A stretch of 64,000 nucleotides of DNA from Escherichia coli O157:H7 (lineage in GTDB: Bacteria > Pseudomonadota > Gammaproteobacteria > Enterobacterales > Enterobacteriaceae): NCBI RefSeq assembly GCF_013167455.1, contig NZ_CP038328.1. One strand, 5' to 3'. Positions 30,001 to 36,000 of this stretch are shown here, one piece after another. The stretch's first letter is position 1. Each line of letters opens with the position of its first letter. A program made the position numbers.

Positions 30001-33000
30001 TTTCCCGTTCAGGGTCAACGAGTATCAGCATACCTTCAGGGAAGCTGGGTTTACCACCCTGCGGTGCGGTCATTGAATGCCCCTTGACCTCCAGCCAGAA
30101 CGACCTGTCACTGGCTTTTGTGGTGGTGGAGATCCATTTAATCGCATCTTTTGCGGTGTACGAAATATCATCCATTGAGAATGCGCCAGCTTGTACGCAG
30201 GAGAGTAACGGATATTCGTAAGCGGGGACACGAGTTAATGGCTCTTCAATTGCGAGCGCCATTTCTGCAATAGATTTTGCCAGGCTGGGACTGAAATCTC
30301 CGACCTTTACATTCAGTATCTTAGCAAGCTGTGCTGCGTGGCTGGCATTTATGGCGTTGATGCCAGCCATTAGCTGATTAACAGCGCTTTGGGTAACACC
30401 TAATTCATAGGCTAATGATTCCTGCGACAGGCCTAACTCTTTCTTTTTAGCGTTAAAAATACTTTTCAGACGCTTGGCGTCTTCCAGTTGCTCAGGGGTT
30501 AACGGTTTCTTTTTCATGTTCATACCATATCACCTTTGGTTATATGTAATGAAATATCTGCGGTGTTGACATTTTAATAACTGTGCGTAATGATATGGGC
30601 ATTTTGAAGGAGTCAGTTATGGCGATGAAAAAAGAGACCCTGGCTGATTACGTATACAGGTTCGGCCAAAAGAAAGCCGCTAAGGACTTTGGCGTGGCGC
30701 AGAGTGCAATCAGTAAAGCGCTTCTCGTCGGACGAGAAATATACGTCAAAACCTTTGATGACGGCACAGTTGAGGCGGAAGAGGTTCGTCCGTTCCCTGC
30801 GTTCGTAAGAGGCGATGATTAATCCTGGACACACAGCCCATCGGAGGTGTGAGTGAACAGGCAAATCAAAACGGTTATGCCCGAGCAGTACTGTGATGCT
30901 GATCGGGACTGGATACAGGAGCAATTGTTACAGCTAGACCCGACCACCCGGGTAAAAATTGCAGCAGAGTACGCGAGAGTGTACCAGGAAGAGTGGGACA
31001 AGGAGCCTGTATCGTTCAGGAAGGGCAACAGGGCAAGACGGAGCGCCAACACCCGGTTACGGGTGTATGTCCAGAAGTACGCGAGAGCCAGCCGTGGCTG
31101 GATGCTTTCGCCAGTAGCGGTACGGAAGTTTCCCCCGACACCATGATGGCGGTTAGTTGCGCTAGAAATAATTTCACATGCAACTAATTTCCTGAAAGGA
31201 AGCGAGGAGGGGGTAAGGGGGTGGAGTCGTTGGTAAGGCCTGTATCCCTTGGCCTAGGCCAGAAGGCAGGTACATAGGTTAGGTAGATCACTGTATAAGC
31301 GCGCGATAGTTTCTGGTGAAATAATTATCGAGCTAACTATTGAGTGATAAACTATGTCAGCAGCAACCAAATCGGCACTGATCCGTACACTGAGCACTGT
31401 ACCACTGAGAACAGAGGAGCGTTACAGCTTTCTGGCTGATGTCGTAACGATCCTTGAGTCACAGGGGATGCATGTGGCAAGCAATGTCACAGTAAGAATC
31501 GATGGCAGAAATTTCCGTGTTGATATTCTCGCAACAGCAAAAACTGGTGGGAGTGTGGCTATCGAGATCGATCGTAGCTCTCCGCGACCCCGCTCAGTCA
31601 TGAAATTGCGTGAATTGGCACGTCGTGGCACTGAAGGCTTTGTGTTGCTTCGAATGCCAAAGAAACTGACCAGTTATAGCGATGCTGGGATCGATATCAT
31701 CCCGGCGAATGGCAAGGGGGCGTCATGCTGAAAATCACCCCAAACTTTGCTCAGGAGCGCGGTTTAAACCAGCTGCGGCACCAGTGGAAACTGCATCGCA
31801 CGTACCTGATGTATGCACCCACTGGCTCTGGCAAAACTGGTCTTGCAGCATTCGTCACTGCCGGAATGGTTGAACGTGGTATGCGGGTGATGTTTGTCTG
31901 TCCGTACACCATCCTGCTGAACCAGACAGCGGAACGTTTCACCGAATACGGTTTGCCGTGGGAAGAAATCAGTTTTGTATGGCGTGATCACCCTAACTAT
32001 GACCCGTCACGACTGATTCAGATTGCCAGTGCCGACACGCTGATCCGTCGTGAGTTTCCTGACAACATCGATCTGCTGATCATCGATGAAGCACACATGA
32101 AGCGTCGTGCGTTACTTGAGGTTATCCGGGACAGAGACATCAGGGTTCTTGGACTTTCCGGCACCCCGTTCGCAGCCTGGATGGGGAAGTACTACGAATG
32201 CCTGATCAAGCCTACAACGATTCGTGAACTTATTCAGCGTGGTGATCTGAGCGATTACGAGTTTTTTGCCCCCTCAATGCCTGATCTGGCTGGCGTAAAA
32301 ACCAGTAACACCGTATTTGGACGGGATTACAACGAGGAGCAGCTCGCATCCATCATGGGGAGTTCGGATCTGGTTGGCGATATCGTTCGCAACTGGCTTG
32401 AGAATGGCGAGGATTTGCCGACGATCTGCTTTTGCGTGAATGTTGCGCATGCGAATTTTGTTACCCGTGAGTTTTTACAGGCCGGTATTGGCGCAGAGGT
32501 GATGACGGCAGATACCCTCCATGATGAACGACAGGACATCATTCGCCGTTTTGAAGAGGGCGCGACCAAAATAATTGTCAACGTTGGTGTACTGGTTGCG
32601 GGATTTGACAGCGATGTTCGCTGCCTGATCTACGCCCGTCCGACAAAATCAGAAATCCGTTGGTTGCAGTGCATAGGTAGAGCGTTACGTACAGCCCCAG
32701 GTAAAAAACGTGCGTTGATTTTCGACCATTCTGGTACGGTTCATCGGCTGGGCTTCCCCGAGGATATCGAGTATGACGAACTGCCGGGTAAAAATGACGG
32801 AATGAAAGCGTCTGCTGGCGGTGGCGAGGTTAAGGCTGAGAAACTTCCCAGAGAATGCCCCAAATGCCACTTCATGAAGCCTGCTGGTGTACACATGTGT
32901 CCCAAATGTGGGTTTCGTCCTCTTGGTGGCGATGATGTGGCAACAGACCGCGATCGAAAACTCTCTCGCGTAAACAAAGGGAAACGCGAATACAGTCGCG

Positions 33001-36000
33001 AGGAAAAGCAGCGTTGGTGGAGTGAGATCAAGGGGTATCAGAATTACCGCAACGCGACGGGTAAACCCCTGAGTGACGGATGGTGCGCTCATACCTACAA
33101 GGAGAAGTTCGGTGTGTGGCCTAAAGGCTTCAGTAATGCGCCGCTGCAAACCTCAGTTGAAGTGTACAACTTCATCAAGTCAAAGACCATTGCCTATGCC
33201 AAAGGGCGCAAGAAAGCCATGACAGGAGGCCAGCATGCAGACTAAGAAGGCAGCGGCCGGGCATTGGGGGCGAATTTTTGAATATTACGGCATGCCTCCT
33301 GTTACTGGCTTGAAACATTATAGCGGCCCCTGCCCGATATGTGGTGCCAGAGGTAAATTTCGCTGTGATGATAAGGATGGTTCCGGTTCATGGATTTGTG
33401 TCTGTGGTCACGGGGACGGGATGAATCTGTTGCAACTTGCCACGGGTAAGCCCTGGGTGACGTTGTGTGATGAAATCGATCGGCTGATCGGAAATACCTG
33501 GAAGAGGGAGAAAGTCAGCCAGCCTGTAACAGAGATAAGCAGAAAGCGGGAGCTGGTCATGGATAAGTTTGCCGGACTCCCGTGTCTGCGGGGCACAACA
33601 GGTGAGGCGTACCTGCAGGGGAGGGGAATACTCCAGTTACCGACCGAATCCGTGCGTTTTTGTGACCGTCAGATCGCCAGCGGGCGCGAATATCAGGCAA
33701 TTTACGCCATTGCAACAGATGACAGAGGTTCTCTTTGCTATCTGCATCGTACGTTGCTGGATGGTGATCGCAAGGCGAATGTAGAGGCGGCTAAAAAAAT
33801 GACCGCGCTACAGGAGTTGCCTGGTTTGCAGCATGCCAAATCGGTGGCAATACGCCTGTATCCGGTGTCGTCCACTCTGGGGATAGCCGAGGGTATCGAA
33901 ACTGCGCTTTCATGCCGTCAAATCTTCCGCTGCAATGTGTGGTCAACAATGAACTCCGGTTTTATGGAGAAGTTTATTGCGCCACCAGGCGTTAATCACC
34001 TGATTATCTTTGCAGACAATGATGAGCACGGCGCAGGTCTGGCGGCTGCCTTTAAATGTGGGCATAAGAATCTCATGAGTCGTAATGACGTTGAGAAGGT
34101 CAGCATTCGCTGGCCTGACTTGCCGGATTTTAACGACATGCTCATTCAGGGGTGTGAAGCCCGTGAACATGTGTTGACGCGCAAATTCAAAGCGGAGGCT
34201 GCCTGATGGAAATAGAGATGATCAAGGCGGCTAATGGCGTATTTGTACCGGCGTATGAGCGCGATTTACCCCGACTGGCAAAATTTAAAAACGGTGAGCT
34301 GTATACACTGGAAGCAAAACTTACCCGTAACCCATCTTTTCACCGGAAGATGTTCGCTTTTCTTAATTTCTGCTTTCAGTACTGGTGCGCTGAACATGCT
34401 GGATACGAATTCTCTGATGAAGCGACGCAGTTTGATGAGTTTCGTAAAAATCTGACAATTCTTGCCGGGTTCTATGATGTGGTCACAACCATAAGAGGCG
34501 AGGTGAGATATCGGGCAAAAAGCCTGAGTTACGCGAATATGGATCAGGATGAGTTTGAACGTTGCTACAACGCAATGATTAATGCCGCGTTAAAACATGT
34601 GTTCGGGCGCTCAAACAATCCTGAACTGAATAACCGCCTGCTGTCGTTTTTCTGAGGTGATGATGAAGCAACGTAAACCAAAAAAATGCAAAGTGTGCGG
34701 CTCCTCGTTTGTGCCGTTCCGCTCATATCAGAAAGTTTGCTGTGGTCAGTGCGCACTGGAACTGGTCAGAAAAGAAAAGGCGATAGCTTCAGCAAAAGAG
34801 CAGGCAGACAAGCTGAAAGCGCGCAGGAGGGACTTACAGCCCCGCAGTTACTGGATTAAGCAGGCACAACAGGCTGTGAATGCTTATATCAGGGAGCGGG
34901 ACCGTCATTTGCCGTGTGTTTCATGCGGGACGTTCGATTCAGCCCAGTGGGATGCAGGCCATTACCGTACAACAGCTGCGGCACCTCAGCTCAGATTTGA
35001 TGAACGCAATATCCATAAGCAATGCGTGGTGTGTAACCAGTACAAAAGCGGAAATCTCGTTCCGTATCGTGTCGAACTGATTAACCGCATCGGGCAGGAA
35101 GCAGTAGACGAAATCGAATCAAACCATAGTCGCCACCGCTGGACTGTCGAAGAGTGCAAGGCGATCAAGGCAGAGTATCAACAGAAACTTAAAGACCTGC
35201 GAAACAGCAGAAGTGAGGCCGCATGACGTTCACCGTAAAAACCATTCCTGACATGCTTGTTGAGGCATATGGAAATCAGACCGAAGTGGCCCGAATACTG
35301 AACTGCAATCGTGCCACAGTCAGAAAATACATTGGCGATAAAGAAGGGAAAAGACACGCTATCGTCAACGGTGTTCTTATGGTTCACCGCGGATGGGGTA
35401 AAGATACTGATGCGTGATATCCGGCAGGTTCTTGAGCGCTGGGGGGCATGGGCGGCAAATAACCATGAGGATGTTACATGGTCGCCCATTGCTGCCGGAT
35501 TTAAGAGGCTGATCCCCGAAAAAGTAAAATCACGTCCACAGTGTTGTGACGATGACGCGATGATTATATGCGGGTGTATGGCTCGCCTTAACAGGAACAA
35601 CAGCGATCTGCATGACTTGCTGGTTGATTATTACGTGTTGGGGGAGACGTTCATGGCGCTGGCACGGAAACATGGGTGCTCTGACACCTGTATAGGTAAA
35701 CGCCTTCACAAAGCGGAGGGGATTGTTGAAGGCATGCTGATGATGCTGGGAGTGAGGCTTGAGATGGATCGGTATGTTGAGCGTGAATTGCCGGGAGGGA
35801 GAACCTCTGTATTTTATCAGCGAAAAAATAGTTTACGATCGTAAAAATCTGCATATCATGATAAGAGTGGTTACATTGCCACGCTGCTTAACCCGCCGAT
35901 GCGCGGGTTTTTTTGTACCCAGAATCCTGTGAGCTATACGGAAAGTACACAGAAAGGAAGGTGCGACCACAATTAATAACAAAATCTTAAAAATCGCACA

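Follow-up and report, generated by a model that had tools for sequence, protein, structure and literature searches.

In the Eru1 replication unit of outbreak-associated Stx phages, described in 2021, the phage's own helicase and primase replace the lambda O and P proteins (Llarena et al. 2021, PMC8044961). The same paper defines the unit, gives its gene table with TL-2011c as the reference phage, and reports that Eru1 phages form plaques and high spontaneous titers (PMC8044961). Described Eru1 Stx phages are TL-2011c, P13374, phi191, and Ss-VASD (PMC8044961; PMC8951638), with Ss-VASD itself among those listed in PMC8044961. Searching the literature, we found no replication or host-factor experiment on any Eru1 phage. 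In lambda, O binds ori, P captures host DnaB, chaperones release DnaB, and DnaG primes. Another described system is phage P4, which supplies both its own primase and its own helicase, and whose alpha protein unites a primase, an SF3 helicase, and an origin-binding domain.

Here, we observe that positions 31354 to 34206 of a 64-kb stretch of Escherichia coli O157:H7 DNA (the window) are the published Eru1 replication unit; a sequence-only reading of this region as a helicase-primase module in place of lambda O/P is correct but not new. Shigella phage Ss-VASD is 100% identical to the region over 4.2 kb, and TL-2011c and P13374 are 97.7% identical. The window and TL-2011c carry one and the same unit: gene order agrees, and the window proteins show 96.6 to 100% amino acid identity to TL-2011c gp27 to gp32 (100% for cI, Cro, gp29, and the DUF1367 protein gp32; 98.2% for the helicase, gp30; 96.6% for the primase, gp31). 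To the right of cI and cro we find eru1A (506-aa DEAD/DEAH helicase), eru1B (323-aa Toprim protein), and eru1C (149-aa DUF1367 protein), with the published lengths and order. The module is present in 98 phage records and in 146 to 152 of 5,426 complete E. coli genomes, so that its earlier description as ordinary lambdoid mosaicism is apt. Taken jointly with the mechanism proposed below, it very probably serves an Oslovirus-type Stx1a prophage, in essence Ss-VASD, as its early-right (PR) replication module.

The immunity region shows the expected lambda-like character. The repressor gene (29810 to 30523, minus strand; “Eru1r” of TL-2011c) encodes a LexA-family protein with HTH_3 (Pfam, 8.2e-10) and Peptidase_S24 (9.5e-29) domains. 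Its identity to lambda cI is 61% over 236 aa (E = 5e-97), and to TL-2011c gp27 it is 100%. A restriction-modification pair lies just left of cI. On the plus strand, a PR-like sigma-70 promoter at 30566 to 30594 (TTGACA, 17-nt spacer, AATGAT), assigned by consensus match only, agrees with the consensus at 10 of 12 positions, and a consensus scan from cI to the helicase gene gave no other strong rightward site of this kind. It is followed by cro (30619 to 30822, plus strand), whose product matches Pfam Cro at 4.8e-34 and is 60% identical to lambda Cro over 55 aa. GTG 30583 is given as its start in the ORF list and in the RefSeq record of Ss-VASD; TL-2011c annotates a 67-aa Cro, 100% identical to the 67-aa product from ATG 30619, and GAAGGAG lies 6 nt ahead of that ATG.

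As in lambda, the module occupies the PR operon, downstream of cI/cro and upstream of nin genes and Q, but it differs in gene content. No homologue of lambda N, cII, O, P, ren, or NinB was detected in the 64-kb window by tblastn (nothing better than E = 0.3; for O and P, 1.6 or worse), and there is no Phage_rep_O Pfam match. Replication of the lambda O/P type was rejected, given that Pfam and tblastn recover neither an O-like initiator nor a P- or DnaC-like DnaB loader. A repeat search found no tandem iterons inside any module coding sequence, and the candidate origin is intergenic here, whereas the lambda origin lies within the initiator gene.

Three overlapping ORFs make up the region, at 31354 to 31731 (125 aa), 31725 to 33245 (506 aa), and 33235 to 34206 (323 aa), exactly as first delimited. 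Successive ORFs share 7 and 11 nt, and the final base of the primase stop codon is also the first base of the following gene, so we read them as one operon. Domain searches over 31725 to 34206 bore out the proposed helicase and primase. The helicase (Eru1A; 31725 to 33245, plus strand) matches Pfam ResIII (1.8e-14), DEAD (7.4e-10), and Helicase_C (2.9e-11), all over the curated cut-offs, as well as PHROG 16, “DNA helicase” (2e-109). Its Walker A motif (APTGSGKT, residues A31 to T38; nt 31815 to 31838, plus strand), DEAH box (residues 121 to 124; nt 32085 to 32096, plus strand), SAT-like motif III (SGT, 145 to 147), and motif VI with its arginines (QxxGRxxR, 315 to 322) are invariant in relatives, placing it among SF2 DEAH helicases. 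So are the four cysteines of a zinc ribbon that follows RecA domain 2 (C378-x2-C381...C392-x2-C395; nt 32856 to 32909, plus strand), a ribbon predicted from the sequence motif, its Pfam DZR match (E = 0.016) being below threshold. The protein ends in a conserved, Trp-rich domain of about 110 aa, for which the domain search returned no known family.

The nearest named relatives of the helicase are E. coli RadD (YejH; NCBIfam, 5.9e-25; PDB 6jde, 2.8e-16), followed by archaeal XPB/Rad25 and T4 UvsW, which give the best matches for both RecA-like domains. The order RecA1, RecA2, zinc ribbon, C-terminal domain is RadD-like, resembling that of the 6jde structure. A RadD orthologue was rejected (87.6 bits against the 720-bit cut-off of NCBIfam NF053632, with only residues 17 to 346 covered). 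Unlike RadD, XPB, and UvsW, the protein carries a C-terminal domain that matches no family, and it sits in a phage replication operon with a primase. No hexameric (ring) helicase family was matched.

The primase (Eru1B; 33235 to 34206, plus strand) combines a zinc ribbon (C33...C57; nt 33331 to 33405, plus strand), DUF7146, and a Toprim domain (nt 33877 to 34149, plus strand) in which E219, D261, and D263 (D261-x-D263) are invariant in relatives. Support comes from Pfam Zn_Ribbon_Prim (9e-15; 55.1 bits, cut-off 23), DUF7146 (2.2e-17), and Toprim_3 (5.1e-11; 43.3 bits, cut-off 27.2), and from PHROG 510, “DNA primase” (4e-139). The family profile aligns to residues 3 to 297 of phage P4 alpha, its primase domain (hhalign, 99.3%, E = 3.3e-20), and the two share the Zn_Ribbon_Prim and Toprim_3 domains and the Toprim “AEG..TAL” motif. 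The protein is thus homologous to the primase domain of P4 alpha but stands alone, and primer synthesis is predicted for it. The likeness does not extend to the full P4 alpha architecture: the primase ends at residue 323 as a separate protein, without the D5_N, Pox_D5, and DUF5906 domains of P4 alpha; the P4-like C-terminal origin-binding domain and P4 type-1 repeats are absent from the module; and the SF2 helicase is unrelated to the D5-type SF3 domain of P4 alpha.

The repair and branch-remodelling activities of RadD, XPB/Rad25, and UvsW raise the alternative that helicase and primase act in an accessory capacity, in restart or recombination, as UvsW, RadD, and PriA do, while DnaB and DnaG of the host carry out bulk replication after loading by an unrecognised initiator (orf97, described below, or a host protein), and the lack of a hexameric helicase family match and of a recognisable origin-binding domain in the module would fit this. 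We regard it as improbable. The pair lies exactly where lambda O and P sit, the 64 kb hold no further replication gene, P4 alpha, to which the primase is homologous, is a bona fide replicative primase, and the adjacency of helicase and primase in 81 of 82 assessable loci among 83 related loci (56 of them divergent relatives) suggests one machine. A prophage-borne anti-phage defence or restriction-like system is far less probable still, to the point of being hardly credible. The helicase core does give weak partial PADLOC matches (PbeA, 2.3e-17; type IV restriction, 6.8e-17; DpdF; Cas3), a PD-(D/E)xK protein adjoins it, and the restriction-modification pair is near. However, these matches span the generic RecA-like core only, no defence family is matched by the small proteins or the primase, and the always attached dedicated primase, the PR operon position, and the lack of other replication genes all speak against a defence system.

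The sequence-only reading held that no cII-, O-, or P-like gene lies downstream of cro, which tblastn, Pfam, and hhalign confirm, but it overlooked a 97-aa gene in the cII position (orf97; 30853 to 31146, plus strand). This gene lacks annotation in the RefSeq records of Ss-VASD and TL-2011c, and the label “CII” in records PV189404 and PV189405 is based on position only. Its identification as lambda cII was rejected (nothing by tblastn; hhalign probability, 0.18%). The product matches PHROG 852, a family of unknown function (2.5e-44), and has no Pfam match even at E = 10. An AF2 model of moderate confidence (pLDDT 74) shows a small three-helix protein for which no fold match was found. In its genomic context, orf97 precedes the helicase in 80 of 80 related loci that could be assessed, retains the invariant residues R62, A65, N66, R68, L69, and R70, and also adjoins SF2 helicases in Aeromonas and Listonella phages.

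Between orf97 and the three ORFs lies a conserved non-coding element of 207 bp (31147 to 31353, plus strand). It contains a G5N3G5 tract (31209 to 31221) and a GGTTAGGTAGATC box (31277 to 31289), flanked by type-specific palindromes, each of 35 bp (IR1, 31153 to 31187; IR2, 31306 to 31340, within an AT-rich stretch). In a cross-locus alignment, the element is conserved at the nucleotide level among loci whose helicases are only 66 to 71% identical and whose proteins are 45 to 70% identical. The G5N3G5 tract occurs once in the window, against 0.13 expected, and has an exact match in 60 of 89 fetched loci, each time as a single copy in this interval, on the strand that encodes the helicase. Scanning the whole IMG/VR collection (2.9 million viral contigs) for the two-part motif yielded 115 stretches, with the helicase within 2 kb downstream in 83 of 86 assessable cases and orf97 within 400 bp upstream in 101 of 106, so that the element stands next to the module in about 95% of assessable cases. 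It also accompanies helicase and primase in phages whose immunity regions differ.

Because relatives carrying a RepL-like initiator have palindromic iterons in this same interval, we mark it as the origin region: the element is a candidate origin of replication and its palindromes or iterons are putative recognition sites. A covariation test did not tell orf97, helicase, and primase apart, and domain searches recognise no origin-binding domain in any module protein. Herpesvirus UL9 and SaPI Rep-type initiators are non-ring helicases that recognise an origin of inverted sites flanking a central region. They provide a functional analogy only, the helicase here having no significant homology to them; one relative gives a sub-threshold Herpes_ori_bp match (E = 0.0085).

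The same interval might instead hold a transcriptional signal, either an internal promoter or a nut/put-type antitermination site making up for the missing N. In the PR transcript the element comes after cro and orf97 and ahead of the replication genes, the spot taken by nutR and tR1 in lambda; this position, the strand-specific G-rich tract, and a phage without N are all compatible with such a role. We nonetheless judge it unlikely: the window holds no second copy of the element that could act as a PL-side partner, the core shows no conserved structure by RNAalifold, Rfam returns no match, and no sigma-70-like promoter occurs within it. The conservation is like that of origins, lying in the primary sequence and accompanied by flanking palindromes or iterons, and it follows the helicase-primase module where the immunity regions differ. 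We infer that orf97, this candidate origin, the helicase, and the primase form the functional core of the module.

The remaining two genes appear in a different light. The small ORF directly upstream of the helicase (orf125; 31354 to 31731, plus strand) had been read as an endonuclease-like member of the module, and the fold stands: we recover the alpha-beta-beta-beta-alpha-beta core of a stand-alone PD-(D/E)xK (restriction-endonuclease-like) protein. Family residues D57, E71, D73, and K84 are conserved in the pattern E-x-D and not the canonical (D/E)-x-K, and in the E. coli protein the family's upstream Glu and DRGDG loop are replaced. Fixed membership does not stand, as orf125 is found in 43 of 83 related loci and in just 16 of the 56 divergent relatives; elsewhere the slot is either unoccupied or filled by a RepL-like winged-helix initiator or an HNH homing endonuclease. 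orf125 is an accessory gene in a variable position ahead of the helicase, where it can be swapped for others.

Whether this occupant serves replication at all can be questioned. It may have landed beside the helicase gene as a selfish homing-type endonuclease of the free-standing sort, or as an exclusion “moron,” which would suit its absence from 40 of 56 divergent modules (many with no gene in the slot), the NUMOD4/HNH homing endonucleases in that slot at five loci, and the two alleles only 37% identical within E. coli modules otherwise 98 to 99% identical. We consider this a serious possibility, though somewhat the less probable one. Hundreds of phage initiator-type proteins contain the same domain, placed between an N terminus of the Phage_rep_O, HTH_36, DUF1376, or Lin1244 type and a C-terminal region, and the 7-nt overlap with the helicase start suggests translational coupling. 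Because the domain is built into initiator-type proteins, we argue for a recurrent role of the orf125 domain in replication initiation.

At the other end, the DUF1367 gene (“Eru1C,” 149 aa; 34206 to 34655, plus strand; Pfam DUF1367, 4.1e-24) has its place after the primase in 26 of the 75 loci that could be assessed but in only 1 of the 56 divergent ones, with NinG and then NinH downstream. Its PHROG 319 match (3e-62) is labelled NinB/Orf recombination mediator, whereas BLASTP to lambda NinB gives nothing and the Pfam assignment is DUF1367, not NinB. It is probably the first gene of a nin-like recombination region and not part of the replication core.

Taken as a whole, Eru1 identity combined with replication by a phage-encoded helicase and primase expressed from PR is the explanation in which we place considerable confidence. 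By homology, the lambda-like cI with its S24 self-cleavage domain keeps PR shut, and SOS-induced cleavage would then allow a transcript through cro, orf97, the 207-bp element, orf125, helicase, primase, and nin genes. At the domain level, the phage is predicted to supply its own DNA unwinding, through the SF2 DEAH helicase, and its own primer making, through the P4 alpha-type primase, and since it brings both, the lambda route would not be used. Replication would start at the non-coding element, with the type-specific palindromes or iterons around the G5N3G5 tract and GGTTAGGTAGATC box as recognition sites. Presumably the phage still relies on Pol III, SSB, gyrase, and ligase of the host, as established for small temperate phages. 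SF2 helicases of the RadD/XPB/UvsW type are not known to be replicative (ring) helicases. Because the helicase belongs to this group and not to a ring family, replacement of DnaB cannot be assumed; its role may lie in opening or remodelling the origin and not in driving forks, and the phage might still depend on host DnaB. Both the mechanism and the host-factor dependence of the module are thus offered as predictions.

Set against the published Eru1 gene list, the DUF1367 gene “eru1C” is not conserved with the module, whereas the unannotated 97-aa gene and the non-coding element, neither of which is mentioned in the Eru1 papers, are. The 83-locus comparison therefore refines the published picture of this replication unit, bringing in orf97 and the cis element, making orf125 optional, and leaving DUF1367 out.

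The replication region of the Stx1a prophage (31354-34206) belongs to a rightward string of genes that, by the ORF list, runs from cro through a 97-aa ORF (orf97; 30853-31146, plus strand), a 207-bp gap, a 125-aa ORF of the PD-(D/E)xK fold (orf125; 31354-31731, plus strand), helicase, primase, a DUF1367 protein, NinG, NinH and Q to stx1AB. Above the curated Pfam cut-offs, the helicase (506 aa; 31725-33245, plus strand) carries ResIII, DEAD and Helicase_C and the primase (323 aa; 33235-34206, plus strand) carries Zn_Ribbon_Prim, DUF7146 and Toprim_3, while no Pfam family matches either small ORF. 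The helicase motifs APTGSGKT (residues 31-38) and DEAH (121-124) and a CxxC...CxxC ribbon (378-395) are all invariant in relatives. A PR-like promoter (30566-30594, plus strand) is predicted ahead of the cro-to-nin genes, and since the junctions overlap (7 nt for orf125/helicase, 11 nt for helicase/primase, and 1 nt for primase/DUF1367), we read the genes as one operon behind it. The immunity genes resemble those of lambda (61% identity for cI, with HTH_3 and Peptidase_S24, and 60% for Cro, with the Cro domain, all above the same cut-offs), and no counterpart of lambda N, cII, O, P, ren, or NinB could be detected across the 64-kb window. The sequence-only reading had placed a zinc-ribbon DEAH SF2 helicase and a zinc-finger/Toprim-like primase downstream of lambda-like cI and cro, in a region lacking cII-, O-, and P-like genes; it is confirmed in every particular, and its interpretation as a helicase-primase rather than O/P type of replication module is supported.

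The same module is present in other Stx phages. Over positions 30500-34700, identity is 100% to Ss-VASD, a Shigella phage of the genus Oslovirus (Sepvirinae), and 97.7% to TL-2011c and P13374, which are the Stx2a phages from the O103:H25 (Norwegian) and O104:H4 (German) outbreak strains, and the window's proteins are 96.6-100% identical to TL-2011c gp27-gp32. Llarena et al. (2021) reported O and P as missing, with eru1A (DEAD/DEAH helicase), eru1B (Toprim protein), and eru1C (DUF1367) in their place, named the arrangement the Eru1 replication unit, and counted Ss-VASD among its members (PMC8044961); a follow-up paper widened the scheme to 13 Eru types (PMC8951638). A literature search for experimental study of Eru1 replication returned these two classification papers only (PMC8044961, PMC8951638), with no mention of an origin, orf97, or gp29 in them. 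We find the module in 98 phage records; among 5,426 complete E. coli genomes, 146-152 carry it, chromosomally every time. The helicase-primase finding is correct, yet already published as Eru1, and we add nothing to that classification; the side results on the make-up of the core, the place of eru1C, and the recurrence of the PD-(D/E)xK domain are modest, testable additions.

Several features of the surrounding prophage were also observed. In the RefSeq record of Ss-VASD, cro begins at GTG 30583 (79 aa; ORF 30583-30822), upstream of the predicted PR -10 hexamer (30589-30594). ATG 30619, with GAAGGAG 6 nt upstream, yields the 67-aa form of Cro that TL-2011c has in its annotation, and seems to be the genuine start. 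Just left of cI, in roughly the position of lambda's rexAB, two overlapping minus-strand genes (27296-29715) have Ss-VASD counterparts whose annotations are restriction endonuclease (317 aa) and DNA methyltransferase (489-aa ORF in the window), and would be a restriction-modification pair borne by the prophage. A 409-bp minus-strand stretch (20418-20826) has 82% DNA identity to lambda ninC, a PAPS-reductase-like gene; it lies in the leftward arm and points the other way, an unusual location for a nin gene. The stx1A and stx1B genes (36342-37577), situated ~500 bp downstream from Q, occupy a low-GC island (GC of 0.39-0.45, versus ~0.51 for the replication genes).

Across 83 loci, comprising 80 related loci from IMG/VR and three annotated phages, an orf97 homologue stands upstream of the helicase in 80 of 80 assessable cases, and the primase adjoins the helicase in 81 of 82. 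DUF1367 follows the primase in 26 of 75 assessable loci and in 1 of 56 divergent ones. Its match to PHROG 319 (labelled NinB/Orf) and the NinG and NinH genes that follow it suggest that DUF1367 belongs with the nin recombination region and not with replication. As a modest and testable addition, we propose that the replication core consists of orf97, the cis element in the gap, helicase, and primase, and that eru1C lies outside it.

The orf97 gene is kept in relatives with helicases of just 59-70% identity, a Vibrio phage among them, and it adjoins SF2 helicases in Aeromonas phage 62AhydR11PP and Listonella phage phiHSIC as well. It is unannotated in the RefSeq records of Ss-VASD and TL-2011c; a good Shine-Dalgarno sequence (GGAGG) lies 5 nt before its GTG start, and the gene is conserved in phages ranging from those of E. 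coli to those of Vibrio. In two GenBank records it is called “CII transcriptional activator”, a label without sequence support; we rejected this identity, as orf97 is unrelated to cII. A Foldseek search of the PDB with its structure model, itself of moderate confidence, gave no match at an E value of 0.001 or better.

The slot between orf97 and the helicase is variable. The orf125 family occurs in 43 of 83 loci (16 of 56 among divergent ones), many relatives have no gene there at all, and others hold a RepL/HTH_36 winged-helix “replication protein” or a NUMOD4/HNH homing endonuclease; NUMOD4 plus HNH_3 (I-HmuI-like) genes lie directly upstream of the helicase start in several related phages (L041, 4408-5001; L049, 4252-5007; L061, 3887-4351; L084, 4447-5007; own coordinates of each). 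Two orf125 alleles, only 37% identical to each other, are found in E. coli modules that elsewhere share 98-99% identity. The 37% identical version belongs to a swapped block in eight E. coli Eru1 prophages (L020, L023, L024, L028, L029, and L032-L034; positions ~4390-5007), which is contiguous and takes in the C terminus of orf97, the first palindrome, and orf125; the G-tract and box of the cis element are retained within it, and the helicase and primase, outside it, are 98-99% identical. A word-indexed protein search gave near-identical orf125 homologues only, and an exhaustive profile search, which was required to go further, recovered 602 cluster representatives. About half are stand-alone proteins of 100-140 aa, and the others hold the domain internally, behind N termini of phage-initiator type (Phage_rep_O, DUF1376, DUF6291, HTH_36, Lin1244_N, and DnaB_2), as in a Providencia phage “O” protein encoded ahead of a DnaB-type helicase. 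The PD-(D/E)xK domain recurs in phage initiator proteins, again a modest addition. No match to orf125 was found among PDB sequences.

The nearest named relative of the helicase is RadD (NCBIfam, 5.9e-25; PDB 6jde, 2.8e-16), followed by XPB/Rad25 and T4 UvsW, and it scores 87.6 bits against the RadD model's cut-off of 720 bits. It is an SF2 enzyme of the repair/remodelling kind, neither a RadD orthologue nor a ring helicase. No Pfam family matched its C terminus (133 aa searched; last ~110 residues). That the helicase-nuclease set constitutes a defence system is unlikely, as PADLOC matches the generic helicase core only. The primase-family profile aligns to residues 3-297 of phage P4 alpha, its experimentally defined primase domain, with 99.3% probability, and the two proteins share the Pfam zinc ribbon and Toprim_3 domains. 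P4 alpha also has SF3 helicase and origin-binding parts, whereas the module primase lacks both, and the module's SF2 helicase is unrelated to them, a Walker A motif being the sole match. Searches of PDB sequences with the single primase sequence and with a profile returned nothing significant (best, Aquifex DnaG; E value, 0.3). Among related helicases, ORF42 of phiHSIC (L008, 1309-4170) bears a Hint plus LAGLIDADG intein near its N terminus, and in L032, an IMG/VR prophage fragment (helicase, 4453-5910), the helicase match ends at residue 486 with no primase, DUF1367, or NinG in ~5 kb of downstream sequence, probably through deletion or insertion in a decaying prophage.

Within the 207-bp gap between orf97 and orf125 we observe a 35-bp palindrome (IR1, 31153-31187), a G5N3G5 tract (31209-31221), the box GGTTAGGTAGATC (31277-31289), and a second 35-bp palindrome in AT-rich DNA (IR2, 31306-31340). 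Relatives with just 45-70% protein identity show the same layout, in which the G-tract and box are nearly invariant and the flanking palindromes or short repeats type dependent; variants with a RepL-like gene have palindromic iterons in the same interval. G5N3G5 occurs once in the window (0.13 expected), which holds no second copy of the element. Of 89 fetched loci, 60 match the tract exactly; each of these has a single copy, in the corresponding interval and on the strand of the helicase gene. When every IMG/VR contig was scanned for the two-part motif, 115 stretches were recovered, with a helicase within 2 kb downstream in 83 of 86 assessable cases and orf97 within 400 bp upstream in 101 of 106. 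Five viral contigs (L101, L142, L156, L166, and L189), one from a giant-virus bin, have the G5N3G5...GGTTAGGTAG pair and no module proteins; these could have arisen by chance, at the maximum spacing permitted, or could be the motif in a different setting. We read the element as the candidate origin. In a comparison meant to single out the protein that binds the palindromes, divergence of the flanks correlates similarly with that of orf97, the helicase core, the helicase C terminus, and the primase (Spearman, 0.45-0.71); the only discordant pairs are the E. coli recombinants, in which palindrome and orf125 changed as one contiguous block, making these pairs uninformative. Regex-based classes of the flanking repeats were too coarse to help. 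A structured RNA in the G-tract-to-box core, including an impression of covarying hairpins in the spacer, was dropped after RNAalifold predicted no pairs on 16 diverse copies. An Rfam scan of 29700-36400 (E values up to 1) gave no family, only a chance microRNA match.

Homology shows that a lambda-type, SOS-cleavable repressor controls PR and that the operon encodes an SF2 helicase and a P4-alpha-type primase. After induction, these two enzymes, together with orf97, would act on the intergenic element to open the DNA and lay primers, bypassing the lambda path (O, P, DnaB, DnaK/DnaJ/GrpE, and DnaG), and host Pol III, SSB, gyrase, and ligase would complete synthesis. The SF2 enzyme could either drive the fork or act as a PriA- or UvsW-like origin remodeller that enables loading of host DnaB, a role in which the G-rich non-template strand would favour an R-loop. 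More tentatively still, and with some doubt on our part, the true Eru1-type replicon may be not the eru1A-B-C trio but a unit of four components, conserved in phages of Enterobacterales and Vibrio: the unannotated 97-aa protein, an intergenic origin (G5N3G5 and the box, flanked by type-specific palindromes), an SF2 helicase, and a P4-alpha-type primase. An SF2 helicase of non-ring type would then carry out initiation, possibly at a G-rich R-loop that depends on transcription, as for UvsW/PriA, with PD-(D/E)xK as a recurrent, so far undescribed initiator building block.

Lysogens of Eru1 phages have been reported as far less stable than those of lambda-type Stx phages (PMC8044961). In the outbreak strains O103:H25 (Norway, 2006) and O104:H4 (Germany, 2011), stx2a is carried by Eru1 phages. 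Toxin output tracks phage replication, so the firing mode and host needs of the Eru1 replicon bear on virulence and risk typing. The candidate origin, the constant 97-aa partner gene absent from reference annotations, and the evidence that eru1C lies outside the core provide testable leads for mapping its origin and initiator.
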